From the IMG/VR virus record IMGVR_UViG_3300037424_001259, positions 1 to 56,843 of that record: a DNA stretch of 56,843 bases; one strand, written 5' to 3'. Position numbers and translations under genes: made by a program. Within the stretch, counting starts at the first letter, position 1, and each line of letters opens with the position of its first letter. The notes under the pieces were generated by a model, which had not been told where the DNA came from, made no database searches, and saw nothing but the letters and a program-made list of their open reading frames with translations. This document shows positions 22,055 to 56,180 of the stretch, piece after piece. The DNA is from a virus (lineage: Duplodnaviria; Caudoviricetes).

Positions 22055-22057
22055 ACG

Positions 22058-23068
22058 ATGAAAGCGCGACTTCAGTTTGAGCGTACCGACACCGCGATCA
22101 CGCTTGGCGCCCTGACGATCAACAAGCTGCGGCTCAAGAGCGACCCGACCACGGAGCACAGCGTCGACTTGATGGTCGGTGCGACGCTGGAGAATGCGGG
22201 ATACGGCGAATACTACCTCAACTGCCCGCTCGTCACATCCGAAGGAACGGTTGACGTTGAAGTCACCGGCTTCCCCGCACGTTTCGATACCGGGCAGTTC
22301 GAGTATTGGGCCAGCGGCTACGCCGGGGCGGCGGACACGGGCGGACCTGTGGCGGGGTCGTACACCCTGGGGCAGCTTGTCACCAAGTATCGCCGCAGGC
22401 TTGTTGACGAGATCGGCACGCCCCTCTGGTCGGATGATGAATTCACAGAATTCATCGACATGCTGCAGAAGATGATCTGCGCGGACTTCCGCATTCTGGA
22501 GGATCGAAGCACGACCTCCGTCTGCTCGGTTGATCTCGTGCAGGGCAGTGGTTTGGTATCTGTCAGCCCGCGGATCACGCACATCGTGCGCGGTCGGGTC
22601 GACGGGGAGACCGCCTTTCTGACGCTCAAAACCTCCGCTGAAATGGACGACGAATACGGCGCGGACTGGGAGTCCGCTTCCGTCACGCAGGATATGCCGA
22701 CGATTCTCGTGACCAAGGGCATGGGGCTGAACAAGGTCTACCTCTACCCGCCGTTGGATGTGGTGGCCGGGGGAACGTTGAAGCTCGCGGTTTACCGCCT
22801 CCCGCTGGTGGACCTGGACTACACCACTCACAACGCGCAGTACCTCGAGATCGATAAGTACGTACACCTGCTGTTCAACGGCGTCATGTGGCAGGCGTAC
22901 TTGAAGCAGGATGCCGACACGTATGATCCGAAGAAAGCCGAGCAGCACCGTGTGTTTTGGGAAGGGAAGGATGGAAGCGGCGGCGACAAGGACAAGATTC
23001 AGCGCATGGTGTTGCGGGAGCATGTTCGTGAAGGGCAGAGCGTTCCGCACTACGGGCTAGTGTGTTAG
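22058..23068 (+). CDS. Head-tail adaptor (tail tubular protein A-like) with N-terminal extension
   Basis: RRRLVD...LWSDDEF, LYPP, L.VYRLP and AYLKQDADTYDPKKA motifs. Confidence 0.75.
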   Translation: MKARLQFERTDTAITLGALTINKLRLKSDPTTEHSVDLMVGATLENAGYGEYYLNCPLVTSEGTVDVEVTGFPARFDTGQFEYWASGYAGAADTGGPVAGSYTLGQLVTKYRRRLVDEIGTPLWSDDEFTEFIDMLQKMICADFRILEDRSTTSVCSVDLVQGSGLVSVSPRITHIVRGRVDGETAFLTLKTSAEMDDEYGADWESASVTQDMPTILVTKGMGLNKVYLYPPLDVVAGGTLKLAVYRLPLVDLDYTTHNAQYLEIDKYVHLLFNGVMWQAYLKQDADTYDPKKAEQHRVFWEGKDGSGGDKDKIQRMVLREHVREGQSVPHYGLVC

Positions 23069-30580: not shown

Positions 30581-30589
30581 GCGGGCTGA

Positions 30590-33019: not shown

Positions 33020-33396
33020 AACAGATGGAAGAACACGACTTCATTGCTTTGATGAATACAGGCGATGCGAAACTGTTTCAGTCCCCCGACGATACTGACA
33101 ACGAGAGAGAAACAGAAGATAAGACCCGCGAGCGAACGGCTGTGGCGATGGAAAAGATTGCAGCAGTTTTAGGTTCTCTTTCTCAAAAACCACAGGAAAA
33201 AACTCCAGACAAGTCTGCCGAAATAATCAAAGGCCTGGCCGAACTCGTAAACAAATTATTGTCACAACTTCGGACGACGGATGCGAAGCCGTTGACGGTG
33301 GCTTATCCTGCCCCGGCGAAGTCGATAACAGTTGAAGTGACGGGATATAATTACGACGGCAGAATCAAAACGATGGTTTTGACGAGGAATCCGTAG
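33016..33396 (+). CDS. Hypothetical protein
   Basis: GGAGG SD and ATGA coupling. Confidence 0.6.
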   Translation: MKQMEEHDFIALMNTGDAKLFQSPDDTDNERETEDKTRERTAVAMEKIAAVLGSLSQKPQEKTPDKSAEIIKGLAELVNKLLSQLRTTDAKPLTVAYPAPAKSITVEVTGYNYDGRIKTMVLTRNP

Positions 33397-38672: not shown

Positions 38673-38893
38673 GTCTGGTAACCAAGGGTCTCGGCACTCG
38701 GCAGATGCTCCTTAAGGGGCTGGCTGTTGTCCTTGGCGCCATCTTGGAACAGAAGAAGGACACCGAGGCATTCATGCTATTCAACAAACGCAGACTTGCT
38801 AACCGGCGGGCGATAGAACTGGTACGATCAGATGAGCAAGACGTAATTGATATTTTTAATTGTCTGGCGGCGACCGAGGAGATATTCATATGA
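38669..38893 (+). CDS. Small hypothetical protein
   Basis: Coupled on both sides. Confidence 0.55.
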   Translation: MSLVTKGLGTRQMLLKGLAVVLGAILEQKKDTEAFMLFNKRRLANRRAIELVRSDEQDVIDIFNCLAATEEIFI

Positions 38894-41800: not shown

Positions 41801-44661
41801 TGAGAAAGACCTGGGTGAACTCCGAGATCACAACCCTCGACAATGCCCTGCGCATCTGGCAGGACCGCAACGTCGACATGCTCCGAACGAAGCAGGACAT
41901 CGAGAAGCAAATCGGTGCGCTGAACGACGAGGTGAACTTCCGCCAGAAGGAAACCCTCGCGATCTCCAAGGTTGCGGATCGTCAAGGCGAACTCAAAAAG
42001 CGCTTCGAGAAACCCATTTCAGAATTGATCGCGCTGTACAACGAGACCATCGAGTCGGTCGGCGAATACCTGAGTATGCGCCACGCCGAGGAGTACAACG
42101 ATGTCATCGCCAAGCGCAACCCCGGTTTCGAGGGGCCGGGGTCCGGGATCGAGACTGAGGCCGCCCGGAAATACCTCGAGGGGCTCTCAAAGGAACGCCG
42201 CGAAGGACTCGAGGGAATCGAGGAACTCATCCGGGCTTACAGCGCCACCGTCGAGGACATGATGGTGGAGTACGGGCTTGAAACGCGGGAGACGATCGAC
42301 CTCTGGCGGGAAATGTACCCGCACTACGTTCCGTTCCAGCGCGAAGGGGCGGACGAGGGCGAGGGCATCGGCAACAGGACCGGCAAGGGCATGAACATCC
42401 GCGGCGGAGAGTCGAAGGTCGCGCACGGATCTTCCCTGCCGATCACGAACGTCCTGGCGAACATGTTCGAGAAGGGGCGCCGGACCATCATGCGCGGGGA
42501 GAAGAACCGCGTCGGCAACGCCACCTACGGCGCCGCGGTCAAGTACCAGAACAAGGACTTCTGGAAGGCGGTCAACCCCGAGCGCGTGAGCAAGAGACGG
42601 TTCGCCGCCCTCGAGGCCGAAGCCAAGGCCCTCCAGGAAGAAATCGACATGATCGCGCAGGGGGACTTCCTTGAGGATGAGAACGCCGGGAGGAACGCCG
42701 ACCTCGAGGCCAAATTGAAGAAGGTCGAGAAGGCCATCGACCGCTGGCACGTCGACCGGGCAGAACTCAACAGGGAAATGGCGCGGCTGGGAGTCCCTGC
42801 GGCCGACGTTGAAGCGATCTTCGACGAGCCAAAAGAGCGCTACCTCAACCCCTACACGAAGCAGACCGCGTGGCGCGTGAACTCTGCCGTGCGCGACAAG
42901 CCCTACGTCCTGGCGACTCGGTTCAAGGGGCAGGATCACTTCCTGTTCTTCAACAACCGCAACCCCCGCGCCCTCGAGATGGCGAAGGCGATGAAGAACA
43001 TGGACGTGGAGGATCTCCACTTCATGCTCGCGGCGATGTCGAAGTACACCCGCGTCTTCGCCTCGCTCTCGACGCAGTGGAACGTGTTCTTCGGCCCGGT
43101 CAACGCTGTCCGTGACGTGCAGGAGGCCATGCTGAACCTGACGAACACCCCACTGGCGGGTCGGCAGGACGACGTTGTGAAGATGGTGCCCAAGGCCATC
43201 CTAGGGATCTACAAGGACGTGCGGGGGCGCCGCGCTGGTATGGATCCTGACCTCACGGACCCGGTTGTGCTCGCGGCCAATGAGTACCGTGAGAATGGCG
43301 GGATGACAGGCTTCGTCACCATGCTTGCGGACGCACAGGAACGGGCGGAGTCGATCGAGAAGGAACTCAAGAAGATCACCGAAGGGAAATTCAGGGGCGC
43401 CGGCCGAGCAATCATCGACTGGGTCTCCGACTACAACGAGGCGCTCGAGAACGGGACCCGGCTGGCGGTCTTCATGACGGCTCGCGAGAACGGTCTGAGC
43501 CCCGAGCAGTCGGCCGCCATGGCGAAAGAGATCACGGTCAACTTCAACCGCAAGGGGCAGATCGCTTCTCAGGCCGGAGCGATGTACGCCTTCTTCAACG
43601 CCGCAGTTCAGGGTTCCGCTGTCATGGCGCGGACCTTGGCCGGGCCTGCAGGTAAGAGGATCCTAGCCGGTGGACTGGCCTTTGGGGCCATGCAGGCTCT
43701 CTTCTTGGCCGCCGCGGGCTACAAGGACGACGAGCCGCCGGACTTTGTGAAGCAAAGGAACATCATCATCCCCTGGTTCGACGAGGGCAAGAACTACACG
43801 ATGATCCCGCTGCCTCTTGGCTTCGCTATCCTCCCGAGCCTAGGCCGGATGGCTGCCGAGCAGATCATCGGCGAAGGCAAGCGGCCTGGGAAGCTGGCGA
43901 CGAACCTCCTAGGGCTCGTGGCCGACACCTTCATCCCCACCGGCGGCGGCGGGAACCCCAGTTCCCTATCGAAGTTCGCGGTCAACGCTGTCGCCCCGAC
44001 CGCGGGTCGGCCGATCGCAGCTCTGGCAATCAACGAGGACTACACCGGGCGCCCCGTCTTTCGGGACAACTTCTCCTTCCGCGAGCGCACTCCCGGATTC
44101 ACGCGCACCAAGGACTCAGCCTCCGCTCTCGGAAAGGCTGTCGCGGAGTTTTCCAACTGGGCCTCCGGGGGGACGCAGGACACGCCCGGATCGTTCTCTC
44201 CGACTGCAGACGAATTCGACTTCCTCGTTTCCCAGTACGCGGGAGGTGTTGGCCGGGAAGTAATGAAGACCGCAATAACCGCAAGCGCTGTTGCTCAGGG
44301 AAAAGAGATCCTCCCCTACAAAGTTCCTCTTGTCGGACGCTTCTGGGGGTCTGCTTCTGGATCCTATGCCGTCAAGAATCACTTCTACGAGAACCTCCGG
44401 CTGGCCTATGAGCACAAGAACGAGATCGAGGGCAGGGGAAAGCGCGGTGAAAACATCGAAGATTACATCAAGAAGAACCCGGAGGCTGGCGCGTTTAAGA
44501 TGGCGATGGCGTTCGAGGGGGATCTCGATAAACTCAAGGACGCCAAGACGAAAGCGAACGCACAGGGATTTCATGCTCACAACAGGTATTTCGATCAACA
44601 GGCTATCGGCATGATGGAAGAGTTCAACAAGCAGTTTGACAGGCTGAAGAAAAGGAAGTAG
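38890..44661 (+). CDS. Giant polyvalent ejection protein (HExxH peptidase-like, ParB/Srx-like and C-terminal LPD38-like domains)
   Basis: VFVHEFGH; PPIEV....G.MRVSDGHRRV; EITVNFNRKG, YAFFNAAVQG and IPLPLGF; ATG at 38890 coupled by ATGA. Confidence 0.8.
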   Translation: MSVGCLKKHGLDPGTIAIIEKKALKYIAAKAEIRDAWRQAAQEHLLDLDGQRQRIEALAAPAERKAAAAKEERLPAAMPAPAVPAEKIAAVAPQKSNADLAIVNGNAVAKDEEAQVPLIPEKKARPSILEEAPAPKIGVDTSFDFGANVAPAPAPKPTNPVAAYQAKINEEFPPGDTLVPTERTIHSKGGVIVDRPAKDKHPRGGVVIRFGSGKEKHLTLKEARKWEVFNEQDFRLIEQERSRKEMKGNGEGAFLIGLIKKYGGFDPRMAGLRSDFFQDLKIPPGILKKGAQSVDKLANELGYDDFHDMLADVRSELETGRPSYNGKRDFHENFQPREVPYGPVRRDTGEREAGTPSRPAKETNEPVRSGTGRNVDDATGQPVAGREGSGEGADAGGKGERYGGDLGNARRVQGRGDSHDVARQSDAGGAEVREGVGLREVYAVKRLQESLLENKEISEGFKKRIAGIKPAHLPLSRAAEGELMSALSKFFGVSKKVIIVDANGLFNGVKALDNYIFIDKDATNLLSKVFVHEFGHFKGKERQDLHDVLWQLVDREKFKKWRAAREATQERSGYPFLSEAAAFEEFTNDMMAEVIHNPEFFERLAAEHVGTFRRMIMWIRAKMIAMGINPEGFGYYFSRPGSFPEAVKQIEDFVRNRIESVPGVTKGDLAFFSPANDRQSWDQWSTKEKQARRLAAEAKKAGDVQTENMWTARADELKRKITAASLSANPEDFFGRAMFSPRDDAPPAMSEMLTDSVYRKKVSDNYFKDETLSANSRLVPQVPQGLKLGMWRYDDWGKGVYGHGMSQLRLLDPSTLLLGEDVDQNGRRPDADRYAEWFKEGKAAPPIEVVETDKGLMRVSDGHRRVASAKKNGVPVLAWVSPSMDVLPGKDGKLSRYNGDPKMPVIKTGLTYEAWKDGTGKRTTPLEGGFSDPGLPVPPDFPMFSPRAQKPYTPDWAAIAASQDVAHQVALRKTWVNSEITTLDNALRIWQDRNVDMLRTKQDIEKQIGALNDEVNFRQKETLAISKVADRQGELKKRFEKPISELIALYNETIESVGEYLSMRHAEEYNDVIAKRNPGFEGPGSGIETEAARKYLEGLSKERREGLEGIEELIRAYSATVEDMMVEYGLETRETIDLWREMYPHYVPFQREGADEGEGIGNRTGKGMNIRGGESKVAHGSSLPITNVLANMFEKGRRTIMRGEKNRVGNATYGAAVKYQNKDFWKAVNPERVSKRRFAALEAEAKALQEEIDMIAQGDFLEDENAGRNADLEAKLKKVEKAIDRWHVDRAELNREMARLGVPAADVEAIFDEPKERYLNPYTKQTAWRVNSAVRDKPYVLATRFKGQDHFLFFNNRNPRALEMAKAMKNMDVEDLHFMLAAMSKYTRVFASLSTQWNVFFGPVNAVRDVQEAMLNLTNTPLAGRQDDVVKMVPKAILGIYKDVRGRRAGMDPDLTDPVVLAANEYRENGGMTGFVTMLADAQERAESIEKELKKITEGKFRGAGRAIIDWVSDYNEALENGTRLAVFMTARENGLSPEQSAAMAKEITVNFNRKGQIASQAGAMYAFFNAAVQGSAVMARTLAGPAGKRILAGGLAFGAMQALFLAAAGYKDDEPPDFVKQRNIIIPWFDEGKNYTMIPLPLGFAILPSLGRMAAEQIIGEGKRPGKLATNLLGLVADTFIPTGGGGNPSSLSKFAVNAVAPTAGRPIAALAINEDYTGRPVFRDNFSFRERTPGFTRTKDSASALGKAVAEFSNWASGGTQDTPGSFSPTADEFDFLVSQYAGGVGREVMKTAITASAVAQGKEILPYKVPLVGRFWGSASGSYAVKNHFYENLRLAYEHKNEIEGRGKRGENIEDYIKKNPEAGAFKMAMAFEGDLDKLKDAKTKANAQGFHAHNRYFDQQAIGMMEEFNKQFDRLKKRK
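39911..40294 (+). CDS. Overprinted +1-frame gene nested in the giant protein
   Basis: GGAGG SD 6 nt before ATG 39911 (alternative ATGs at 39881 and 39980); internal repeat LRDNP.P.A...AR.L conserved only in this frame. Confidence 0.6.
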   Translation: MGLCVETLEREKLERHPGQPRKPMSLCVPGPDGMWMMLRDNPSPAAKDLARALMQEGRENAMGGILGTHVVSKDGEIHMTLRDNPTPEALRFARELAYGKSTPSRGYKKVSSKTKKSARASRKESQE

Positions 44662-46519: not shown

Positions 46520-46996
46520 TCACGGGGAATCCTCCCCAGGCCGCGCTGCGCCCTGAGAAGCATGAAACCTTACGTGGCAGCGGACACAAAGCCAGCGCAC
46601 GACGAGGGGCGCAGAATAATCGTCATGGTGCGCGTGAAGTCTGGATTTAATTTCTCCGCACTCCGAACACAACGAGGGCTTTTGTATTGATCCAGATCTC
46701 TTCCCGCGCCCTATTGCAACGTGCGCCTTTCGTTCTTTCGGATGCGATATCCTCCAGGTTCTTGTGCGTTGCTTCTTTGCCGCCTTCCTTGCGTCAGAAT
46801 AAAGAGAATATTTATCAGACGAAGGGTATTTGTGCCTCGACTCTTTTTGGCAATCTCGGCATTCGTACTGAAATCCTCGGGCATTAGCGGTGTGCCTTTT
46901 GTACTCTGATGCGGCCTTTATTGTTTTACAAGAACTACACCGAAGAAGCTGAGCTTCGGCCCTTGGCTCTTCTGGTAATGTTTCGTTCTCCTTCAT
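46520..46996 (-). CDS. HNH endonuclease with N-terminal zinc finger
   Basis: CSSC...CRDC, then CSECG...LHAHHDDYSAPLVVRWLCVRCH. Confidence 0.85.
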   Translation of the reverse strand: MKENETLPEEPRAEAQLLRCSSCKTIKAASEYKRHTANARGFQYECRDCQKESRHKYPSSDKYSLYSDARKAAKKQRTRTWRISHPKERKAHVAIGRGKRSGSIQKPSLCSECGEIKSRLHAHHDDYSAPLVVRWLCVRCHVRFHASQGAARPGEDSP

Positions 46997-47091
46997 CCCT
47001 CCTCCTTCCCCATCGCGGGGGTGATAAACCGCAGCGGCTTTGCACGTTCGGGACCGTACCGTGCTCAACGCGCAAAGCCGTTACCACCTAA

Positions 47092-47445
47092 TCACTCGGG
47101 AAAAAAGGTTAAAATAGCACGAGCCAGCGACCTTAGTTCTTCTGGCGTTGCGTCGTTTTTCATTGTGTTTGCTTTTCTGGAAATTACCCATACGTTGCCG
47201 GGGATATATCCGATTGAATTTACTTTTCGGTCAAGTGACGGGGAGTTGTCGTTCTTAGATGTTGAACCACGATAAAGTTTGATACCGAGAAGTGGGCATG
47301 TTTCTGGAACGATTATGTCATCCACCGTAATAGAAAACGGTATTGAGTCGCGCTTGCTTCTGTACTTTGCTACAGCAAGCATGTGCTCTTTGAGGTGAGC
47401 CAGGAAATAACGCTTTCGTGTCTCTGGCTTGCTTTTCCCGCTCAT
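47092..47445 (-). CDS. HNH-like endonuclease
   Basis: CPLLG...SPSLDR.....GY..GNV.VIS.KAN.MK.DAT.EEL. Confidence 0.85.
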   Translation of the reverse strand: MSGKSKPETRKRYFLAHLKEHMLAVAKYRSKRDSIPFSITVDDIIVPETCPLLGIKLYRGSTSKNDNSPSLDRKVNSIGYIPGNVWVISRKANTMKNDATPEELRSLARAILTFFPE

Positions 47446-47832
47446 TTAGACACCTCCCGGAATATACTCTTGGTTAGGCTGCAAAACTGCATCAGGAGTG
47501 TCGCGCTTCCGAGGGTACTTGTTTCGGCACTCCTCTGCCGAGGTTACACCAAGCGCCTTCCCGCACTCTGCAATCAACGAATGGTAAGAGATTGGCTTGT
47601 CTCTGAATTCCATCGCGTCCATGTACCAACGCGAAAGCAACCACTCAAGAAGACATATCCTATTTTGCCCCGACATCACATTTATCCGCGAAGCGTCCAA
47701 AGCACGTTCAAGGTTTTCTATCTTTGTGGCGGCTTCGCCCATCTGCTTATTGCATGTCTCGCGCTCAAACCGCTCCCCGTGAACTGCGTCCATGTTCACC
47801 GATGCGCGGAGCCTCCTTGCAATGTCGCTCAT
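47446..47832 (-). CDS. Cassette 1 hypothetical protein (3' end runs past the array boundary)
   Basis: ORF coupled to 47829-48107. Confidence 0.65.
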   Translation of the reverse strand: MSDIARRLRASVNMDAVHGERFERETCNKQMGEAATKIENLERALDASRINVMSGQNRICLLEWLLSRWYMDAMEFRDKPISYHSLIAECGKALGVTSAEECRNKYPRKRDTPDAVLQPNQEYIPGGV

Positions 47833-48107
47833 CCCGCAAGCCCTTTTTGTCTTCCGCAGACGCGAGAGATGGTTTCTCCAAATGCCACGAATTGCTCAAC
47901 CGTCCTCCGTGCCGCTGCCAACTCCTGTTCCTGTTTTGCGACGAGCGATTGCAGGTGTGAAGCGAAAACAGAAACTTTCGTTTGCTGCTCGCTGGCTGGG
48001 AGTTCTTCGATCATCACGCAGAGTTTGTGCATCCGTCCTGCGAGGTACGGAACGGTATTCTCGCCAAGAACCTCATCCACCAGCCTGTCGATATTCGCCA
48101 TCTCCAT
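47829..48107 (-). CDS. Cassette 1 hypothetical protein
   Basis: ORF with SD starting just inside attC1. Confidence 0.65.
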   Translation of the reverse strand: MEMANIDRLVDEVLGENTVPYLAGRMHKLCVMIEELPASEQQTKVSVFASHLQSLVAKQEQELAAARRTVEQFVAFGETISRVCGRQKGLAG

Positions 48108-48131
48108 TCCCTTTCTGCCGGATCAGGAGGA

Positions 48132-48190
48132 GCCTAACCCACGCATGGAGGAGACGCGGAAACCGCGCTCCTCATAACTTCATGTTAGGT
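48132..48190 (+). repeat. attC site 1 (59 bp)
   Basis: GCCTAAC CCACG CATgGAGG AGaC GCGG AAA CCGC GCT CCTCATA ACTTCAT GTTAGGT (lower case = unpaired bases). Confidence 0.9.
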
Positions 48191-48480
48191 GGTAAAAAGA
48201 TATCAATTTTGTCTCGCATGTCCCCGAGAGCCGCGTGGCCGTAGTTTTCAGACCAATCGTCGAAGAGTTGGCGGGACTCCCGGAGTAATTCAACCAATTT
48301 TGAAATTCGTTGTTCGGCTGAGAGGCATTCCTTGCCGCGCTTTGACCCTTTACCCTCCTCCCACCCTGGACCCTGCATCGAACATTCGATCCCCTCTTGA
48401 CAGAAAAATTCTTCGGGACACTGGCAGGGCTCGCAGAACTCGTCACCGGCATCAATCTCCATGGCTATCAGTCGTTTCAT
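48172..48480 (-). CDS. Cassette 2 Cys-rich hypothetical protein
   Basis: AGGAGG SD; stop lies inside attC1. Confidence 0.7.
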   Translation of the reverse strand: MKRLIAMEIDAGDEFCEPCQCPEEFFCQEGIECSMQGPGWEEGKGSKRGKECLSAEQRISKLVELLRESRQLFDDWSENYGHAALGDMRDKIDIFLPPNMKL

Positions 48481-48505
48481 AACATCCCTCCTGGTTATGA
48501 AGACC

Positions 48506-48563
48506 ACCTAACCAAGTGCTGTAGTTGACCGCGAGGCGCGGCAACTAAGCACCCATGTTAGAT
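48506..48563 (+). repeat. attC site 2 (58 bp)
   Basis: ACCTAAC CAAGT GCTgTAGT TGaC CGCG AGG CGCG GCA ACTAAGC ACCCAT GTTAGAT. Confidence 0.9.
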
Positions 48564-49000
48564 GCGGAACCGAAACACCGATGCCACATCACCAGCGACC
48601 CGGCCACCGCAACATTGTAGCTCTCCGTCCGCACGCTCTCCAGGCTCACGACGTGCTGACACTTCGCGAGGATCTCCTTCGGTAATCCATGGTCTTCTGC
48701 CCCGAGCAAATACACGGCCCGTTCCGGGTGCTTGAATTGCGCCAGCGGCGTTCCTCCCATTTCGACCGCTACTAATGGCGCATCATAGGGCCGGGACAAG
48801 AGGAACAGATCCCATGTCGCGTGCTCACGGAGCGGTACGTGCCGCCACGTTTTCAGCGTGTCGCTCGCCTGTTTCGGATAACGAGAACCAATTGTGAAAA
48901 TCCCCGTCGCCCCGAGTTGCGAAGCAGAGCGCCAGAGCGTGCCGAGGTTCATTGGCGTCTTGTGATGGTAAATCCCGATCTCGAAATACCCGCGCATCAC
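48545..49000 (-). CDS. Cassette 3: SpoU/TrmH-family (SPOUT) RNA 2'-O-methyltransferase
   Basis: NLGTLWRSA..LG (motif 1), LLGAEDHGL (motif 2) and ESYNVAVAG (motif 3). Confidence 0.9.
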   Translation of the reverse strand: MMRGYFEIGIYHHKTPMNLGTLWRSASQLGATGIFTIGSRYPKQASDTLKTWRHVPLREHATWDLFLLSRPYDAPLVAVEMGGTPLAQFKHPERAVYLLGAEDHGLPKEILAKCQHVVSLESVRTESYNVAVAGSLVMWHRCFGSASNMGA

Positions 49001-49018
49001 AACTCCTTTCGGAAGAGC

Positions 49019-49071
49019 ATCTAACCCAGCAGTGAACCGGACGCTACGCGCCGGTTACCGCACTGTTAGAC
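49019..49071 (+). repeat. attC site 3 (53 bp)
   Basis: ATCTAAC CCAGC AGTgAACC GGaC GC TAC GC GCC GGTTACC GCACT GTTAGAC. Confidence 0.9.
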
Positions 49072-49319
49072 CGCAAGAACTGCATACCAGCCTCGGTGAT
49101 CTCCCAACGCAACCACGGATAGCCCTCGGCTTTTGGCACGATGAATTTTCGCGTTTCGAGTTCAAGAACCAAAGAGCGCAGCCACTGCTTGTCCATGTCC
49201 CATATGCTGACTCGCGGAGAATTAGAAAGCACCGCGAGCGCATTTGCCGTGGTCCGCATCTTCGGCTTCAAGTCTGCGAGGTCTCCAGAAAAACTATCAA
49301 GAAAAATAACTCCCGGCAT
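49044..49319 (-). CDS. Cassette 4 small winged-helix-like protein
   Basis: AAGGAG SD; C-terminal WEITEAGMQFL wing motif; stop lies inside attC3. Confidence 0.7.
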   Translation of the reverse strand: MPGVIFLDSFSGDLADLKPKMRTTANALAVLSNSPRVSIWDMDKQWLRSLVLELETRKFIVPKAEGYPWLRWEITEAGMQFLRSNSAVTGA

Positions 49320-49345
49320 TTGTTCCAGTTCTCCTTTCCCGTGGG

Positions 49346-49404
49346 GTCTAACCCACGCATGGACCTGACCGCGAGACGCGGCAGGTCATGACTTCATGTT
49401 AGGT
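49346..49404 (+). repeat. attC site 4 (59 bp)
   Basis: GTCTAAC CCACG CATgGACC TGaC CGCG AGA CGCG GCA GGTCATG ACTTCAT GTTAGGT. Confidence 0.9.
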
Positions 49405-49656
49405 GGATAAACAGCCACGGGCCAAACTCGCAAGACAATTACATTCGGGAACCTCGCTATACTTTCTCGCTGGTGCTAAGTTCTCCGCGTCTATGCACGC
49501 CTGCAACCGCTGCGGATCTTCACCCTTGCCGAGCGACACGTTAAGCAGGATGCAATGCTTTCTTCCTCTTGCCGCCCGCTTCACGTATTGGCAAGACCCG
49601 CAAATGTGAACAGAGGGGCTACTGTCGATCTTGATTCGCAGGTATCGCGTTGCCAT
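49399..49656 (-). CDS. Cassette 5 gene 4, Cys-rich
   Basis: TAATG coupling; stop TAA lies in the attC4 core. Confidence 0.6.
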   Translation of the reverse strand: MATRYLRIKIDSSPSVHICGSCQYVKRAARGRKHCILLNVSLGKGEDPQRLQACIDAENLAPARKYSEVPECNCLASLARGCLST

Positions 49657-49838
49657 TACATAAACCCGCACTTTCTCATCATCGCCATCATGTCCTTGAA
49701 CCCGACAACAATCCATTCCTTCTTCTTGAGCGGAAGCGAAAAATGGAACTCCCCGGCGTTGGGGTTTAAAACATCGCCATCACGAAAGTATCGAATCAGG
49801 TTGTCATTCTCTTTGCAGGTGTACTTTACGGTCTTCAT
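49656..49838 (-). CDS. Cassette 5 gene 3
   Basis: GGAGG SD; coupled. Confidence 0.6.
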   Translation of the reverse strand: MKTVKYTCKENDNLIRYFRDGDVLNPNAGEFHFSLPLKKKEWIVVGFKDMMAMMRKCGFM

Positions 49839-49994
49839 TTATTCACCCTCCGTCAAACAACCTTCCGGCATCTCGTTTTCATACACGAGCTTGTGTTGCT
49901 CGTCCCGGCCTACTCCCCGCCCGCAGATCGGGCAAAAAAACACAATCCCCCGCTTCCCGTATGGCCGTATTTCGCATTCTGTTTTGCCGCCCAT
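49839..49994 (-). CDS. Cassette 5 gene 2 (51 aa, FCPICG)
   Basis: Read manually: MGGKTECEIRPYGKRGIVFFCPICG... Confidence 0.45.
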   Translation of the reverse strand: MGGKTECEIRPYGKRGIVFFCPICGRGVGRDEQHKLVYENEMPEGCLTEGE

Positions 49995-50011
49995 GTTCTC
50001 GTGGTAGAGGC

Positions 50012-50209
50012 TCACTTTCCATTTTCTCCTTTCATGTATTCCCTTATCCCATCACACATCAATTGCAACTTTCTGACGTATTCCCGAGCGGGGTGCGTAT
50101 TGCCGTGCCCGTCAAGCCAAACAACATCTTCCCACATCGTTACTCTATCGCACCGATCAAGAAGGAGAAGGAGAACCTTCTTGTAACCCTTATTACCTAG
50201 GCCACTCAT
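50012..50209 (-). CDS. Cassette 5 gene 1
   Basis: GGAGG SD before ATG 50209. Confidence 0.6.
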   Translation of the reverse strand: MSGLGNKGYKKVLLLLLDRCDRVTMWEDVVWLDGHGNTHPAREYVRKLQLMCDGIREYMKGENGK

Positions 50210-50236
50210 CACCCCTCCAATCAAAGCAAAATCACT

Positions 50237-50293
50237 TCCTAACCCGAGCATGAAGCTGACCGCTAGGAGCGGCAGCTTATGCTTTTGTTAGAT
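50237..50293 (+). repeat. attC site 5 (57 bp)
   Basis: TCCTAAC CCGAG CATgAAGC TGaC CGCT AGG AGCG GCA GCTTATG CTTTT GTTAGAT. Confidence 0.9.
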
Positions 50294-50878
50294 GGATAAC
50301 CGCAACTGACGCACCCACTCCGAACGCCCCGTTGCACGCTCGATCTCCTTGGCGTTCTCCTCCGCGTGATAGTTAATCCCGTGCTGTGCCTCAGACACCG
50401 CAGCAACGTAGTAGGCCAGTGCCGGTTTCGCGTTGGCAGACTTCAAGGACTCGCAGATGTAATCAATTCCGTTGCCACTGATCCCGATTTGCTGAAGCAT
50501 GAAATCTTTCAGCCCCTTGTGCTCTGGTGTCGGCGGTCGCCACGCCTTGACCTGCTCGGCCATCGCGGTCAGGCGTTCGTTCGCGGCTTGGTCCTTTGCC
50601 AGCCACTGTTCGGTGCGGGAAACATCAGCGGCCTTCTCGGACTGCCCAAACGCAAGGCGCTCATCGGTGGTCATGGCCTTCAGTCGCGCCAATTTCTCAC
50701 GGGACTCGACCAAACGCTTCGCGTGATAGTCCGAAGGCTCGAACTTGTCCGGAACGGGCGCGTCATTTGGATCGTCACGCATTTCGATCAACGCCCCGAA
50801 AGCGCGGGCGCATCCCATAATGAACTCCTGAAACGTCTGCCCATTGTCCATCAGCTTCGCGGTGTACCCTGTTGGCAT
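50288..50878 (-). CDS. Cassette 6 conserved phage hypothetical protein (MPTGYTA family)
   Basis: MPTGYTA...F..F...CARAFGA...MRD and W.PPT.EH..LK.FM.QQI motifs. Confidence 0.8.
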   Translation of the reverse strand: MPTGYTAKLMDNGQTFQEFIMGCARAFGALIEMRDDPNDAPVPDKFEPSDYHAKRLVESREKLARLKAMTTDERLAFGQSEKAADVSRTEQWLAKDQAANERLTAMAEQVKAWRPPTPEHKGLKDFMLQQIGISGNGIDYICESLKSANAKPALAYYVAAVSEAQHGINYHAEENAKEIERATGRSEWVRQLRLSI

Positions 50879-50911
50879 TTCGATCTCCTTTCAAGATTAA
50901 CTACAAAAACC

Positions 50912-50968
50912 ATCTAACCCAGCCGTTGTAGCCGACGCCTACGGCGCGGCTAAACGCTACTGTTAGAT
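50912..50968 (+). repeat. attC site 6 (57 bp)
   Basis: ATCTAAC CCAGCC GTTgTAGC CGaC GCC TAC GGC GCG GCTAAAC GCTACT GTTAGAT. Confidence 0.9.
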
Positions 50969-51237
50969 GGAAACTGAAAACCACAATACAGATTGTCTTC
51001 GGCAATCCGCTTGATACTCGCCAGCAGCCCGAGAAGCAAATCGTTCTGCGCTCCCGGAAGCGTCCCGGTGTGAGCGATGATCCTCCGCAGCGTGTCCTTG
51101 AACCGCTCCGACTCGTCGTCGTTGAGGCAGTCCCGGAACTCAACAGAAACGATTCTTCCGCCCTTCCATCCGTCGCCAGCGGTCACTCCGGGTTCGGTCC
51201 CGTCCGCAAACTCGAATACTGCCGTATACCGTTTCAT
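50950..51237 (-). CDS. Cassette 7 hypothetical protein
   Basis: GGAGGAG SD; stop lies inside attC6. Confidence 0.7.
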   Translation of the reverse strand: MKRYTAVFEFADGTEPGVTAGDGWKGGRIVSVEFRDCLNDDESERFKDTLRRIIAHTGTLPGAQNDLLLGLLASIKRIAEDNLYCGFQFPSNSSV

Positions 51238-51257
51238 GCTACTCCTCCGGTTGTGCC

Positions 51258-51313
51258 ATCTAACCCACGGTTGTAGCCGACGCCTACGGCGCGGCTAAAC
51301 GCTACTGTTAAAA
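51258..51313 (+). repeat. attC site 7 (56 bp)
   Basis: ATCTAAC CCACG GTTgTAGC CGaC GCC TAC GGC GCG GCTAAAC GCTACT GTTAAAA. Confidence 0.9.
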
Positions 51314-51769
51314 TCGCTCCTCGACCCAAACCCCGCCCTTGCGCTGGATCGCCACGAAGTTAAATTCTGGAAACAGGTCAGCAGCGACCTTGATGCGCAC
51401 CCGGGCGGCCTCTCTCCAGAAGCCCTTGACTTCGTGGAACTGGAACACGTCGCAGTCTTTGTCCTCGTTCCTTGCGACGACAAGGAAGTCTGGTTTGAAC
51501 CATGCTCTGTTGGCAAGCCGCAGGCGGATAGCCTCGAATTTCCACGACACAATCACTCTGGCATGGCGCAGGATCTCAAGGTGGTCGGCATACTTTGCTT
51601 CCGTTGGGTTCATTCCGCGAGGCGTAGGCTTGCTCTTGGCAACCGTCTCCTTTGCCACGATCGGTTGCTTCTGGCACACAACTTTATGTTGAGGGTTGAT
51701 CTGTAATAGCGCTTGCTCTCTGTGCGCGGGAGAGAGCATCGCGAGGTCGTCTTCGATTGTTCTAGCCAT
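51308..51769 (-). CDS. DUF1064-like PD-(D/E)XK endonuclease
   Basis: MNPTEAKYA..L, W.FEAI.LRLA....KPDF, HEVKGFW and RIKVAA motifs. Confidence 0.8.
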   Translation of the reverse strand: MARTIEDDLAMLSPAHREQALLQINPQHKVVCQKQPIVAKETVAKSKPTPRGMNPTEAKYADHLEILRHARVIVSWKFEAIRLRLANRAWFKPDFLVVARNEDKDCDVFQFHEVKGFWREAARVRIKVAADLFPEFNFVAIQRKGGVWVEERF

Positions 51770-51899
51770 GCTTGTTACTCATCACCACGTCGGGTCATCT
51801 TTAGGTTGTCTTTTCGGATTCGGATCATCTCTTTCGTCGCGGTACTCGGGCGACTCTCGGTACTCAGCGGCGATCTCGTCTTCGTATGAAACTGACATT

Positions 51900-52238
51900 T
51901 CAGTTCGCCCCTCCCGGGACGATAATCAGGGGTTTCGACGCGGCCACCCGCTTGCTCATGATGCCTGAGACTGCAGTGATGCCCCGCAGAACGAGTTGCG
52001 GATCGTGCCCGAGAAGGGCGACGAAAGAACTCGATGCAATGGCGACCGCCGGGTCTTGAGCAAGGCGGCCTCCTATAAAAAACACCGGCTTGCCGTCTCT
52101 GATCGCAGCGACGTAAAGGAATGTTGTGGCGGGGTCGCTGGCGAGGGCCGCAATGTCTTCTCGGCGGCCTGCAGGGATGCCGTTCTCTTCCGTCGTCGGT
52201 GAATCAGGCTGCGCATCCTTGACTTCCTCGTCGCTCAT
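51900..52238 (-). CDS. Hypothetical protein
   Basis: SD and ATGA coupling; IIVP C-terminus. Confidence 0.6.
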   Translation of the reverse strand: MSDEEVKDAQPDSPTTEENGIPAGRREDIAALASDPATTFLYVAAIRDGKPVFFIGGRLAQDPAVAIASSSFVALLGHDPQLVLRGITAVSGIMSKRVAASKPLIIVPGGAN

Positions 52239-52417
52239 TTCTCGATCCTCCTAACCGCTCCGTGCTCGTCGTACTGGTAGAGCTGCCCGTCCTGCGTCTT
52301 GATCGTGACGCCGGCTTTCATGCGAGAAGGGAGAAGCCCGCGGTGCTCGCTCTTTGCATGTTGTGCGGCCTTGTAGTCGTCGCCTTTGCTGCGGCCCGGG
52401 TGCTTGTGGTCGCTCAT
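52235..52417 (-). CDS. Hypothetical protein
   Basis: Strong GGAGGAGG SD. Confidence 0.6.
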   Translation of the reverse strand: MSDHKHPGRSKGDDYKAAQHAKSEHRGLLPSRMKAGVTIKTQDGQLYQYDEHGAVRRIEK

Positions 52418-52526
52418 CTAGCCCTCCTCCTCGCCCCTTACTCCGAAACCACGATGGCTGTCCACAACACGGTAGAGCGTGCTGAACCATCGGCCATTTC
52501 AGGGGCGCCTCCCGTTTTTTGTTGGA

Positions 52527-53666
52527 CTACTTCTTGGCGGTTGCTTTGTTCAATTCATTCCAGCTTGCCAAGAGAGACTTCAGCGCCGGCAGCCCCTTCG
52601 CCTGCGCTGTGTCGATCTTGGCGTCCATGGCGGCGGCTTGGTATCCGAGTTCGGCGCCGACGTTGTAGAGGGCGTCGATGATGGCTTGCTCTTCGTCGGT
52701 AACGGTGGTGGCGGCAGAAGCCTCGGAAGGGGCCTCAGCGGTCTTCTCGGCGGGGGCGGACTTGCCCTTGATCTTGTCGCTTATCCTTTTGCCCTGGTCC
52801 TTGCCGACATCAGACCCGTCTCCCTCGGCCTCCTTGCCCTTGATCTCGTCCATGATCGCTTTCCAGGTGGTCTCACCGTCGGCGATGGCGCGGTGCAGGG
52901 CTCGGAGCGTGTCGAGTTCGGCTGGCACGAGCTGGGCGACCGGATGCCCAAGGTAGGCCGCGAGGTCGACCGACCGCACTCCGATCGCCGCGAAGGCGTC
53001 GATGACACGCTTGCGGGCAGCCTGGGGATCCTCGGCGTCCTTCTTCGCCAGGGTCTCGCGGGCAACCTCGAGCGCCTCGTCGGTGATGTCGGCGGGGATC
53101 AGGCGCAGTCCCTCGTTGCGGACGACCTTGGAGACGGCCTTCGATTCCTCGTTCTGCATCTCGTCGTCGGTGGCGCGGACGATGTAGACCGTCTCGTTGT
53201 AGGAGTTCTGCCTCGAGGAGATCACGTCGCGGTCCTTGGCGTTCTTGCGTTCGACGGTCTTCTTGACCTGGATGTCGCGGCTGAATGTGGAGTTCGTCTG
53301 CAGGTCGATGCACCGGACGTTCACCCGGCGGATGTCCCTGTCCTCGTAGACCACGGAGGTCTCAACCATCAGATTCCCCCACTCCCGGACTGCCAGTTCG
53401 GCGAACCGGATGGACGGACCCTTGATGGCCTTGCCGCCAGTGGGCTTGGCGTACTCCACCCGGGCAGCGAACATCGGGCGCCGGCACGCCTCGAGGATGC
53501 GCAACCGGGCCTCGTCGATGTCCCGGGGCTTTCGCAGGGCAACGGAGTAGGCCGACTCGATGCGGGCGCGGGATGCTTCCGCCGCGGCGATCGCGGATGG
53601 GTCGGAGATAGCGAGCGCGGTTCCGGGGTTCTGCTGGACTTTGGCCACTGCGGTGTTCTCTGCCAT
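52527..53666 (-). CDS. Putative ssDNA-annealing recombinase (partner of YqaJ)
   Basis: A...PRD...A, Y.KP.GG..I.GPSIRFAE...R.WGN and DLQTN motifs; adjacent to the exonuclease. Confidence 0.65.
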   Translation of the reverse strand: MAENTAVAKVQQNPGTALAISDPSAIAAAEASRARIESAYSVALRKPRDIDEARLRILEACRRPMFAARVEYAKPTGGKAIKGPSIRFAELAVREWGNLMVETSVVYEDRDIRRVNVRCIDLQTNSTFSRDIQVKKTVERKNAKDRDVISSRQNSYNETVYIVRATDDEMQNEESKAVSKVVRNEGLRLIPADITDEALEVARETLAKKDAEDPQAARKRVIDAFAAIGVRSVDLAAYLGHPVAQLVPAELDTLRALHRAIADGETTWKAIMDEIKGKEAEGDGSDVGKDQGKRISDKIKGKSAPAEKTAEAPSEASAATTVTDEEQAIIDALYNVGAELGYQAAAMDAKIDTAQAKGLPALKSLLASWNELNKATAKK

Positions 53667-53667
53667 G

Positions 53668-54654
53668 TTATTTCTCCTTGGGTTTGTAGAATTTGCGAAT
53701 CCCGTCGACCTTCTTCGTGTGCTTGGCAACGATCGCTTCGTAGTCAACCTTGGAAATCATGCCAGAGATGTGCTTGGCGATCGCCTCGTAGTCAACCTTT
53801 TCCCCGTCCTTGGTGCGCGACCATTTCGCCCTCGAGCCGTCCCCGAACACGATCCCTTCGTCGCCGGCGATGATCTCCTCCAGTTGGTTGATCGCAAGGT
53901 TTTGCTGGACCTTTGCGACATCCAGCATCTCGCCGGCCCGGAGGAGTTCCTGTTTGATCTGCTCGGCCTCGTCTGTCGCCGGCAGGAGCTGCTTCGTATT
54001 CCTGGGGAACTGGCGGGCCAGCCACGCTGCGGCTTCTTCGCTGGCGTCCACCGGCGGCGCCTTGTCGGTCATGACGTAGTCCATCCAGAAGCGCTCTGCC
54101 TCTTCGCGGAGTTGCGCCTCGAGGTCCAGGTTGCGGCCGCGGACGATGGGATAGACGCGGAAGTTCGGGCCAGGGAGAAGCACGGCGATGTCGGCAACGT
54201 CCTGCTGAAGTACCATGCCCTGCCAGATGACTTGAATGAAGTACATATCGGGCACGGCATTCTCCGTTCCGATCTCGCCCCACTTCAGCGACGACGAACG
54301 GCCAAGGATCGCCTTCGCTTCGACCACCCTCTTGTCCTCTTTTCCGACGCCGTCCGGAGTCGCCGCGGCCAAGCGGAATTCAGGACTGATGATGATCTCG
54401 GTATCCCCGCAGTGCCGGACCGGGACATTCTCCTCGATCTCGTACCGGTTAAGAACGGTCGACTGCAGGTTCCGGCCAAGCCACATGGCGAGATTGTCCT
54501 CGAGCGGCTCGGCTCTCCCGGTCTTCTCGAGCCACACCCCGAGCTTCGACTTCCACGGGTTCATGCCGACGATCGCGCCGATGTCGGTCGCGGTGACGTG
54601 CGACTGCCTCAATTTTAGCCATTTTTCTCGAGATAACACCTCGACTTCACTCAT
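53668..54654 (-). CDS. YqaJ-like viral recombinase exonuclease
   Basis: WLKLR...TATD...I.G.NPW.S, ATPDG, VEAK and VPDMY.IQV motifs. Confidence 0.9.
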   Translation of the reverse strand: MSEVEVLSREKWLKLRQSHVTATDIGAIVGMNPWKSKLGVWLEKTGRAEPLEDNLAMWLGRNLQSTVLNRYEIEENVPVRHCGDTEIIISPEFRLAAATPDGVGKEDKRVVEAKAILGRSSSLKWGEIGTENAVPDMYFIQVIWQGMVLQQDVADIAVLLPGPNFRVYPIVRGRNLDLEAQLREEAERFWMDYVMTDKAPPVDASEEAAAWLARQFPRNTKQLLPATDEAEQIKQELLRAGEMLDVAKVQQNLAINQLEEIIAGDEGIVFGDGSRAKWSRTKDGEKVDYEAIAKHISGMISKVDYEAIVAKHTKKVDGIRKFYKPKEK

Positions 54655-54863
54655 CTCTGCGCCCTCCGCACCACAACAAGCGCCGCCGCCAAATCCAACG
54701 ACGCCCTCTTCACGGCGCCCATCTCACGGGTTTTGTAGAACGCCCCGATGGTTTGCTTCCCGTCCCGCGCAAGAGCCCTGTCTGCGGCCAGCATGAACCG
54801 CGCACACTCAACCGTTGCGTTATGGACGGCCTCGCGTTGGGCGGCGGACATGATTCCTTTCAC
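54651..54863 (-). CDS. Hypothetical protein
   Basis: GAVKRASLDL motif; coupled. Confidence 0.6.
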   Translation of the reverse strand: MKGIMSAAQREAVHNATVECARFMLAADRALARDGKQTIGAFYKTREMGAVKRASLDLAAALVVVRRAQR

Positions 54864-55132
54864 GCCCCCTCCTCCTCCGCCGCCGCGCCCTCACCAAACA
54901 GCGCCGGCTGCGCCGTGTTCACGTCGACATCCCCATCGCCGTCCACTGGAGACACCCGCTGGCTGACGAGCAAAGACGCCTTGAACCCGAGTTCGCAGGC
55001 GGCAAGGCACAGCCGGTGCGCGTCACGAATACTCGCCGCGGGCTTCGCGATCTCTTCCTCTTGTCCTTCCGGAACGTAGGTCACAAAGTAGCTTCTCTCC
55101 CCGTTTTTCCACGCTTGCCGCTTCCCCTTCAT
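54860..55132 (-). CDS. Hypothetical protein
   Basis: GGAGG SD before ATG 55132. Confidence 0.55.
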   Translation of the reverse strand: MKGKRQAWKNGERSYFVTYVPEGQEEEIAKPAASIRDAHRLCLAACELGFKASLLVSQRVSPVDGDGDVDVNTAQPALFGEGAAAEEEGA

Positions 55133-55314
55133 TTCGCTTCCCTCCCTGTGAGTTTCTTGAAATCCCAGTTCATCCCGGTCCCATCGCACATATTGAAGTG
55201 CCCGTTTGTCGCCCCTGTCGTCAGGTCCATCGGTTTGGCGTCCATCGCCCGCTCCCGCCGCGCCCACCAGAGCAGCAGCGCGACGATTCCTAGGGCGGCG
55301 AGGGCGGCGATCAT
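55129..55314 (-). CDS. Small membrane protein
   Basis: MIAALAALGIVALLLWW N-terminal TM helix. Confidence 0.5.
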   Translation of the reverse strand: MIAALAALGIVALLLWWARRERAMDAKPMDLTTGATNGHFNMCDGTGMNWDFKKLTGREAK

Positions 55315-55487
55315 GGGCGGGACTCCTCGTCGCGGATCAGCGCATCGATTTCCGCGATAACTTCTTTGCGCCACAGCAGGCCCGCTCCGGGGTCAAACAC
55401 TCCCACCATCTCCCGCGTGCGGCTGCGAAGCCAGAGACTCGACGGTGTGCGCTGACTTGTGATGGACCCAGATTTCATTCGGCGCGG

Positions 55488-56180
55488 TCACGACTTGCCT
55501 TCCTCCAGCGCAGCGTCTACGGCGGCGAGGACTTCTCTGGCGTACTTGACGCACGCCTCCGTGTTAGGCCACGACTCCCCGGCGGGGAGGTTAATCAGCG
55601 CCGCCGTCATCTCCAGCAACTCCCGCCGCCGCTCGGCTCGGGTGGGGACGGCGCACTTGGTGTTCTCGGCGCGGAGAGCATCGTTCTCCTGCTTGTACTC
55701 ATTCATGGCGTTGTAGCGCGACACTATTTCTGCGTTCAGCCGCTCGATCTCCTCGCCACGTCGATCAAACTCGGCGCACGCGCACGGTCCCGAAGTCAGC
55801 GGCAACTCGGGGGCGACCGGGTCGGGAGGGATGCCGGCGATGATGTCACGAACGGCAGATCGCAACTCTGCCTCGTCCCACTTGGCCCTTTCGCTGTCGA
55901 ACCATTTCGTCCATGCCTTTGCCAACTCGCGGCACCGGCAAGCGGGCGCGACGGGGGGCTGCTTGACGGGCTTGACGATGTCGAGCGCCTTCTTCGCACT
56001 GAGCACGTTGCTCATGGTGACGCCGAAGTGCAACTCCTCCGCCGCCTTGACCGCGATTCTCTGCGCGGTGGTTACGGAAGCCCACGCGCGGGACTCGTCG
56101 ATCCAGGCGTACAGGCGTGTAATCTGCGTTGCCGTGAGGTTGTTCGACTGCCGGGAGCCTTCGCCCTTCTTGTGGCTCAT
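55488..56180 (-). CDS. Hypothetical protein
   Basis: ATG 56180 coupled to the upstream stop. Confidence 0.6.
   Translation of the reverse strand: MSHKKGEGSRQSNNLTATQITRLYAWIDESRAWASVTTAQRIAVKAAEELHFGVTMSNVLSAKKALDIVKPVKQPPVAPACRCRELAKAWTKWFDSERAKWDEAELRSAVRDIIAGIPPDPVAPELPLTSGPCACAEFDRRGEEIERLNAEIVSRYNAMNEYKQENDALRAENTKCAVPTRAERRRELLEMTAALINLPAGESWPNTEACVKYAREVLAAVDAALEEGKS

Follow-up and report, generated by a model that had tools for sequence, protein, structure and literature searches.

The IMG/VR virus record IMGVR_UViG_3300037424_001259, a linear contig of 56,843 bp from a sediment phage that is estimated to be 84% complete (we call the whole of it the window), very probably carries an integron-type cassette array without an integrase, that is, a cluster of attC sites lacking integron integrases (CALIN), in the early/recombination gene block of the phage. 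The polarity of crossover would be the ordinary one, the genes would be reversed, and the array would belong to a recurrent class. In integron biology a cassette consists of a promoterless gene followed by its attC site and is read from the promoter Pc. The array of the window is composed of seven cassettes (47474-51307, 3,834 bp) with 11 open reading frames (ORFs), all of which are on the - strand. Four independent lines of evidence identify the + strand as the canonical attC top strand: the positions of the bulged bases, the scores of a covariance model, the layout of the two array ends and the boundary of a cassette shared with another contig.

The attC sites

Seven hairpin sites bounded by RYYYAAC and GTTRRRY lie on the + strand between 48132 and 51313.

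attC1, 48132-48190, + strand, RYYYAAC...GTTRRRY hairpin
attC2, 48506-48563, + strand, RYYYAAC...GTTRRRY hairpin
attC3, 49019-49071, + strand, RYYYAAC...GTTRRRY hairpin
attC4, 49346-49404, + strand, RYYYAAC...GTTRRRY hairpin
attC5, 50237-50293, + strand, RYYYAAC...GTTRRRY hairpin
attC6, 50912-50968, + strand, RYYYAAC...GTTRRRY hairpin
attC7, 51258-51313, + strand, hairpin with a hybrid R', GTTAAAA (51307-51313)

Each of the seven forms an imperfect hairpin with two bulges 6 bp apart, a 3-nt loop and unpaired spacers of ~5-8 nt. The R'' and R' cores (RYYYAAC and GTTRRRY) are present at 7/7 sites, with the hybrid last R' that is expected at the end of an array. The motif CTAAC-N35-60-GTTA gave 15 matches where 1.58 were expected, a number reached in 0/100 shuffles. 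For scoring we made a small covariance model, R1, from eight canonical sites in coding orientation (it is not the model of IntegronFinder), and all seven sites match this canonical-attC model with 20.1-41.2 bits and E values of 1e-8 to 2e-3 over 7 kb. The cores also pair in a shifted manner. When each R'' is paired with the R' of the site before it, the 7 pairs contain 1 mismatch, as against 9 when it is paired with the R' of its own site, and complementarity that good was obtained in only 12 of 5040 permutations. A shifted pairing of this kind is the trace left by units that formerly existed as circles joined at the core.

Parts of the array recur elsewhere. The attC5 site is found again in L132, a contig of a metagenome-assembled genome (MAG), with 98% identity over 54 nt and other DNA on either side, and bodies resembling attC3, attC5 and attC6 occur in other contexts on contigs of two sediment sequencing runs (these runs were examined as contigs only and gave no joints that would show excision). 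A stretch of 40 nt within the cassette 6 gene (50550-50589) matches unrelated contigs in both runs with 5 differences, probably as a conserved protein segment in other organisms.

Two further pieces are shared between cassettes. A 22-nt leader with a ribosome-binding site (RBS) plus the R'' of window cassette 1 (48110-48141) is 97% identical to its counterpart in L132 (2839-2870); because the two cassettes code for unrelated proteins, it appears that leaders and sites undergo mosaic shuffling. Unrelated cassettes also have in common a stretch of ~20 nt, located immediately within the cassette start, that runs from the R' core into ...GCAA(G)AACTGCAT.

shared ~20-nt stretch at cassette starts: window 47473-47492 and 49065-49085; L132 1157-1176 and 2910-2924

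This stretch is read in different frames, giving ...AVLQPN in two proteins and ...MQFLRSN in another, and is therefore conserved as DNA rather than as protein. Either an extended recognition element or common ancestry of the cassette ends may account for it.

Polarity of the sites

Because an attC site is nearly palindromic, the call of the top strand decides everything. In an attC site's bottom strand, extrahelical bases are described as lying on the arm opposite AAC with a 6-bp stem that separates the first from the last, the base at L'' being "usually a G" and the far one a conserved T; an unpaired central spacer and a terminal loop complete the site, and bulges 6 bp apart with 3-nt loops are described for the sites of mobile integrons (PMC5027507). 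At 7/7 window sites the bulges are G...A on the 5' arm of the + strand, which equals T...C on the 3' arm of the - strand, and the far bulged base of the bottom strand is T throughout. Hence, the bulges of all seven sites lie on the 3' arm of the coding strand. In the canonical controls, namely aadA1 (plasmid R100), eight other class 1 cassette sites and one site from phage TJE1, the coding strand has them on its 5' arm.

Model R1 gave the same answer. The + strand scored above the - strand at 7/7 sites by margins of 7 to 27 bits (+/- scores of 41.2/13.9, 34.0/9.3, 28.9/19.9, 27.9/7.0, 23.9/6.1, 22.2/12.0 and 20.1/13.0), and five of five held-out canonical sites (cmlA1, dfrA27, arr-3 and two of TJE1) were called on the coding strand. 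Read on the + strand, the array has a bare G|TTAGGC as its left end and the complete attC7 with its hybrid GTTAAAA as its right end. Insertion of cassettes at a G|TT yields this layout if + is the top strand; under the opposite reading a hairpin would have to stand at the left, and the right end would lack one. Finally, the homology of the SpoU cassette with L132 starts at G|TTAGAT, which means that the gene travels with the attC site upstream of it on the coding strand and that crossover takes place at the G|TT on the + strand.

The usual rule that cassette ORFs lie on the attC top strand is followed by 0/7 cassettes and 0/11 ORFs of the window, and by 11/11 class 1 cassette sites (aadA1 counted once) and 3/3 TJE1 sites among the controls. 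The original prediction, made from the letters of the window, took + as the top strand with the genes inverted, and allowed that the genes would be canonical if + proved to be the recombined strand. We examined that possibility through bulge geometry, the 7/7 model scores, the array ends and the shared cassette boundary; all came out against it and agree on inverted genes.

Cassettes and their open reading frames

The junction and cassettes are as follows.

left array junction, 47473-47479, + strand: G|TTAGGC, between G47473 and T47474; lone half core with no hairpin leftward (no model match)
cassette 1, 47474-48184: ORFs on the - strand at 47829-48107 (92 aa) and 47446-47832 (128 aa); attC1
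cassette 2, 48185-48557: ORF on the - strand at 48172-48480 (102 aa), last residues and stop encoded in attC1; attC2
cassette 3, 48558-49065: ORF on the - strand, SpoU-family methyltransferase, 48545-48997 (150 aa), tail MGA and stop from attC2; attC3
cassette 4, 49066-49398: ORF on the - strand at 49044-49319 (91 aa), stop within attC3; attC4
cassette 5, 49399-50287: ORFs on the - strand at 50012-50209, 49839-50015, 49656-49838 and 49399-49716 (start of the last uncertain); attC5
cassette 6, 50288-50962: ORF on the - strand at 50288-50878 (196 aa, phrog_8905); attC6
cassette 7, 50963-51307: ORF on the - strand at 50950-51237 (95 aa, weak phrog_3876 match), stop within attC6; attC7

Cassette 1 opens with the TTAGGC of the left junction, six bases that pair without mismatch with the R'' of attC1 (GCCTAAC). 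An array had been predicted at 47446-51237. The array is real, but the array proper spans 47474-51307 and its last attC site ends at 51313.

The first ORFs of the cassettes begin 24, 25, 21, 26, 27, 33 and 20 nt from R'', within the 15-35 nt that had been proposed, and all seven have an ATG with a Shine-Dalgarno-like motif. For cassettes 2, 3 and 5 the likely first-ORF starts are 48480, 48997 and 50209 and not those of the longest ORFs. The placement of the stops was also as predicted. In cassettes 2, 3, 4 and 7 the ORF continues across the core, and its stop codon lies 4-8 codons inside the following hairpin (with the endings PNMKL, SNMGA, SNSAVTGA and SNSSV, respectively). The last ORF of cassette 5 stops on the core TAA of the attC4 R' (GTTAGGT, 49399-49401) and that of cassette 6 on the core TAA of the attC5 R' (GTTAGAT, 50288-50290). 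The second ORF of cassette 1 crosses the left junction and has its stop (47446-47448) in the flanking DNA, 26-28 nt past the junction and directly before the ATG of the next phage gene.

Coding by the - strand is indicated by a match to Pfam SpoU_methylase at 4e-21 and by two PHROG matches, and 0/6 long + strand ORFs match Pfam or PHROGs. The assignment of all 11 ORFs to the - strand is borne out by the ORF reading, by these library matches and by an excess of synonymous codon differences in the SpoU gene.

The SpoU cassette and its changing C-terminus

The segment 649-1180 of L132 matches 48556-49088 of the window with 86% nucleotide identity and carries the SpoU gene. The homology begins exactly at T-G|TTAGAT of the attC2 R', the DNA leftward being unrelated, and runs rightward through the 5' leader, the attC3 R'' and the spacer. 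Between the two genes the same residue is encoded by 143 of 147 codons, and there are 53 synonymous and 4 non-synonymous differences. The SpoU cassette is therefore a discrete unit bounded by G|TT that is found with different neighbors.

Four public proteins make up the 90% identity cluster of this methyltransferase. They remain in register to ...CFGSASN and then diverge, ending in MGA (window), N (the L132 type, five contigs), K or a tail of 16 residues. They part at the AA|C crossover, which lies within the N codon. Given four different endings, the SpoU cassette has sat beside at least four neighbors and its C-terminus changed each time. That shuffling would change protein C-termini was part of the original prediction, and the four tails after ...GSASN support it directly. 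Among SpoU homologues of 66-76% identity the tails vary widely and follow no clear ...SN pattern, and for the other cassette proteins the clusters contained a single member or gave no information on tails.

Recurrence of the reversed layout

The reversed layout is present in six further contigs, five of them IMG/VR viral contigs and one in a MAG. A loose attC motif scan of viral contigs gave 118 loci, mostly chance matches. R1 matched at E <= 0.05 in 5 of these 118, with at least two sites in four loci (L032, which is part of contig G001, L047, L079 and L093) and one site in L088. In all four multi-site loci the genes lie opposite to the top strand called by the model. Loci L016, L038 and L082, the hairpins of which had passed a first regular-expression screen, gave no R1 match and were dropped. 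Searches with patterns of single attC types had little yield: the attC2/4/5-type pattern found one genome locus (L132) and zero viral loci, and the attC1/attC4-type pattern found nothing in genome or viral contigs. BLAST of attC6 against plasmids gave three 26-nt matches only (E = 0.4), which are of no use for polarity, and Polaribacter phage P12002L, which carries a published phage CALIN, had no R1 match at E <= 5. The reversed arrays are listed below.

G001 (IMGVR_UViG_3300049483_000041), first array: 11 sites called -, genes +, after genes for a Sak-type annealing protein, NinB and phrog_4019
G001, second array: 5 sites called +, ORFs - (our own ORF reading only)
L093: 4 sites -, genes +, after Mu Gam-like, phrog_646 and phrog_286 genes
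L047: 3 sites, two clearly + and one strand-ambiguous, phrog_9369 gene on - alongside
L079: 2 sites +, small terminase gene on - alongside, - strand ORFs stopping on the core TAA
L127: 3 sites opposite to the gene, found through a 71% identical cassette 6 homologue flanked by attC-like sites
L132 (MAG contig labelled Anaeromyxobacter): 3 sites +, all genes -, found with the attC2/4/5-type pattern

The L132 array resembles that of the window in having a lone G|TTAGAT at its start and a full attC site at its end. In L127, the site downstream of the cassette 6 homologue has an ambiguous fold and did not reach an R1 E value of <= 1. The bulges of G001 and L093 are the ordinary T...G; the reversal is therefore not tied to the C bulge of the window sites. 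The arrays mostly follow phage early or recombination genes. Because other phage contigs have the layout too, it represents a class, not a peculiarity of a single array. The distinct reverse-cassette class of the original prediction is supported by the six contigs, which are a sample obtained with window-derived queries and not an unbiased one.

Three of these contigs have features of their own. The two arrays of G001 (L125/L126), at 20167-22595 and 29080-33360, are in opposite orientation and ~6.5 kb apart, and in the first array hairpins of ~100 nt seem to hold the RBS and start codon of small paralogous proteins with a ...PADAGPVER... motif. L093, from a Mu-like phage, has a tRNA-like gene inside a cassette (11054-11131) to which ARAGORN assigned a four-base anticodon (cgag). 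The array and flank of L132 (1136-4243) abound in methyltransferases: besides the SpoU type there are Methyltransf_11 (inside the array) and N6_N4_Mtase (beside it), with a helicase-like gene alongside. Given the phage-like look of L132, the Anaeromyxobacter bin may not show its host.

Phage genes around the array

The first 45 kb of the window carry terminase, portal-type and major head genes on the + strand, and a 1,933-aa ORF (38860-44661, +) is located at the end of this structural module. A block of - strand genes extends from ~56 kb down to 45.6 kb and includes a RecE-like exonuclease, a Holliday-junction-resolvase-like gene and two endonuclease genes. The array sits inside this block. 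A tRNA-Arg gene (anticodon tct, 55955-56049) is encoded by the + strand within the block. The genes that flank the array are listed from right to left.

51308-51769, - strand: Holliday-junction-resolvase-like phage gene (phrog_190), right flank, its TAA stop (51308-51310) being the TTA of the hybrid R'
47092-47445, - strand: endonuclease phage gene (phrog_3322 endonuclease), left flank, with weaker matches to endonuclease VII and HNH endonuclease families
46520-47068, - strand: second endonuclease gene (endonuclease, endonuclease VII and HNH families)

The RBS and ATG of the 47092-47445 gene lie 28 nt beyond the left junction. The array is immediately followed downstream by the two endonuclease genes (46520-47445), as is typical of phage mosaic hot spots. 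No match to the resolvase-like protein was found in viral contigs, and metagenome contigs gave one fragment of 33% identity. DNA from 51308 to 56000 had no match among isolated phages, and the RecE-like protein found relatives at 27-33% identity only.

Insertion, recombination and expression

By definition, a CALIN has at least two attC sites on the same strand within 4 kb and no integrase nearby (PMC4889954). The window has seven + strand sites within 3.2 kb and no integrase was found in it; intI, attI and Pc do not adjoin the array as they do in a complete integron. The recombinase is presumably an integron integrase of the host, since the record yields none. Among the other contigs, the integron-integrase model found nothing in G001 and in G002 scored 82 bits at best against a cut-off of 265 bits.

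Since the TAA of the resolvase-like gene is the TTA of the hybrid R', the G|TT at which the array would have been inserted overlaps with that stop codon. Insertion of cassettes outside attI, at GWT sites, is documented for integron integrases (10.1101/2022.09.11.507474). The crossover falls at G|TT of R' on the + (top) strand, that is, at AA|C of the folded - (bottom) strand. Along the coding strand each unit thus reads attC, RBS, gene(s) and RYYYAA, the reverse of the usual gene-then-attC order, and the recombinogenic strand would be the non-template strand. Recombination activity of these sites is a prediction from their sequence, based on the shifted core complementarity and on the shared cassette ending at G|TT.

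The genes are most likely translated from read-through phage transcripts that run with the - strand operon. Transcription would come from a phage early promoter, to which the co-orientation with the - strand early block and the RBSs point. A gene ends on the core TAA or runs into the neighboring attC site, in which case its last residues change with the neighbor, as shown for SpoU. Given this geometry, such cassettes are expected to lie antisense to Pc once inside a host integron.

Alternative explanations

Several observations weigh against a reversed, integrase-less array of a recurrent kind. Integron integrase and tyrosine recombinase models (TIGR02249, PF00589) had 0 matches in the record, which at ~84% completeness may be missing such a gene. 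The L''-adjacent bulge of the bottom strand is C at 7/7 sites, where G is usual (PMC5027507); this is a deviation and not an exclusion, since the wording of the source is "usually". That source also gives purine enrichment and greater stability of the bottom strand as composition criteria, and by these the + strand looks bottom-like in its AT skew (+0.14) and in its purine-only loops at 4/7 sites, and the - strand folds more stably at only 6/7 sites, by 0.1-1.3 kcal/mol. The GC skew of the + strand (-0.08) is top-like. As skew and loop composition gave mixed answers on polarity, we gave them little weight. It is also odd for mobile units that four of the seven cassettes have no stop codon of their own. 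Promoter-like sites were not above chance (2 found versus 3.6 expected). A close relative without the array was not found in these searches, and the empty site is a reconstruction. The other reversed arrays were all found with window-derived queries and may represent one attC lineage, and the gene calls in the first G001 array, L047 and L079 are partly our own reading of ORFs and RBSs.

Some of these points would fit genes in canonical orientation, with the + strand being the recombined strand of a mirror-type attC, crossovers on the left side and each gene owning the attC site downstream of it. Besides the purine-only + loops and the positive AT skew, the bulged G is on the + strand and the layout along the coding strand is textbook-like, with starts 20-33 nt past a GTTRRRY and stops that fall in the following RYYYAAC or just inside it. 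We consider this very unlikely. The bulges share the AAC arm on the + strand, which is top-strand geometry (PMC5027507), and the model prefers + as top at every site. Canonical genes would need an attC body at the left end of the array, where there is none, and would leave attC7 on the phage gene. In the shared SpoU cassette homology is lost at G|TTAGAT without attC2, the attC3 side being kept, and the reversed layout is seen in G001 and L093 with ordinary T...G bulges on the coding strand. That the hairpins are no integron sites at all, only terminators, RNA-processing sites or repetitive extragenic palindrome (REP)-like sequences that resemble attC, is highly improbable. They do lie between genes of one operon and no integrase was found nearby. 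However, the matches of up to 41 bits, the 6-bp bulge spacing, the shifted core complementarity, the precise G|TT boundary of the shared cassette and the near-identical attC bodies in unrelated contexts (the two sequencing runs and L132) all speak for attC sites; none of the sites is followed by a T tract and no terminator-like call coincides with an attC site.

A third account holds that the genes are resident phage genes and that attC elements were inserted singly at TAA|C stops, the trapped genes becoming mobile secondarily, which would be cassette birth in a phage. The insertion point of the array is itself a TAA|C stop, stops on the core TAA are found in 2/7 cassettes here and in several genes of L079, L047, L127 and G001, two cassette genes belong to PHROG families, the arrays are in mosaic early regions, and GWT insertion by integron integrases is documented (10.1101/2022.09.11.507474). 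As a description of the present array this is unlikely, because the R'(n-1)/R''(n) complementarity makes a gene region plus one attC an already closed unit and the SpoU unit with its four different neighbors shows that at least that one moves as a cassette. The account concerns the origin of the class and is not an alternative to its present state. As an origin, attC landing on TAA|C stops is plausible and would explain the reversed polarity, the core-TAA stops and the phage-type families.

The reversed array can be joined with this origin in a broader proposal, which we put forward tentatively. Phages would keep their own pool of reverse-polarity cassettes, with attC first on the coding strand. 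Units would arise as attC elements land on TAA|C stops of phage genes and would be exchanged between phages by host integron integrases induced during infection. They would be expressed from phage operons, and be silent or antisense if captured behind Pc in a bacterium. With a non-template recombinogenic strand, phage transcription might favor folding of the sites and exchange of cassettes, and the C-for-G bulge may mark a distinct integrase specificity.

Implications

These results hint at a phage-adapted pool of mobile gene cassettes, in which whole arrays break the cassette-orientation rule and keep the ordinary chemistry of crossover. If this is general, phages trade their own accessory genes through integron-type sites, methyltransferases with a plausible role in counter-defense among them, and gene flow between phage arrays and bacterial integrons would be asymmetric, since the cassettes are antisense behind Pc. 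Proteins would gain a new C-terminal tail with each neighbor, as seen in four natural variants. Pipelines that assign cassette genes by the attC strand would mishandle virome data. Reversed arrays also offer a testable route for the birth of cassettes, a long-standing question.

Comparison with known systems

Mosaic early accessory regions are familiar from phages, as in the nin-type region of lambdoid phages and the semi-essential early region of Mu-like phages. There, as here, small accessory genes are found beside recombination genes (RusA-like in the window, Sak and NinB in G001, Gam-like in L093). Exchange in those regions is put down to homologous or illegitimate recombination, whereas the units of the window are bounded by site-specific sites.

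The sites themselves are close to aadA-type class 1 attC sites in length (53-59 nt), 3-nt loop and two bulges 6 bp apart, and the stems of attC6 and attC7 resemble the aadA1 site base for base. The window differs in having C instead of G beside the L box, the gene on the other strand, and no attI, Pc or intI.

Inversion is typical of toxin-antitoxin cassettes. Single cassettes with transcription opposed to their array are described in sedentary chromosomal integrons, parD/E3 being an example (10.1101/2023.11.21.568050). Gene and transcription oppose the array direction in these as in the window, but they are isolated, have their own promoters and lie in a canonical array, whereas in the window the whole array is reversed and is aligned with the operon of the element that hosts it. 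Integrons with an inverted intI are also known, in which intI is flipped relative to attC and the cassette genes are not (PMC4889954). Insertion at attG (GWT) sites is alike in having a flanking G|TT on both sides and a site other than attI; it was shown experimentally in E. coli and V. cholerae chromosomes (10.1101/2022.09.11.507474), whereas the target in the window is a phage stop codon and seven cassettes are involved.

The nearest relatives are the CALINs described in 2023 from both temperate and virulent phages; they carry methyltransferase genes, and their sites were active in assays with IntI1 (PMC9892861). These share with the window an integrase-less attC array with short ORFs in a phage, half cores at the boundary and methyltransferase cargo (SpoU-family in the window, Methyltransf_11 and N6_N4_Mtase at L132). 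The CALIN of phage TJE1 differs in that 3/3 attC sites are co-oriented with the annotated genes, as against 0/7 in the window. Divergent sites are noted in one phage in that report, and reversed-polarity arrays are not described in the text that we consulted; leaving aside its supplementary tables (17 phage CALINs), we found no description of reversed cassette arrays in phages in the literature that we searched. Phage CALINs and single inverted cassettes are known, and whole reversed arrays that recur in phages appear to be new.

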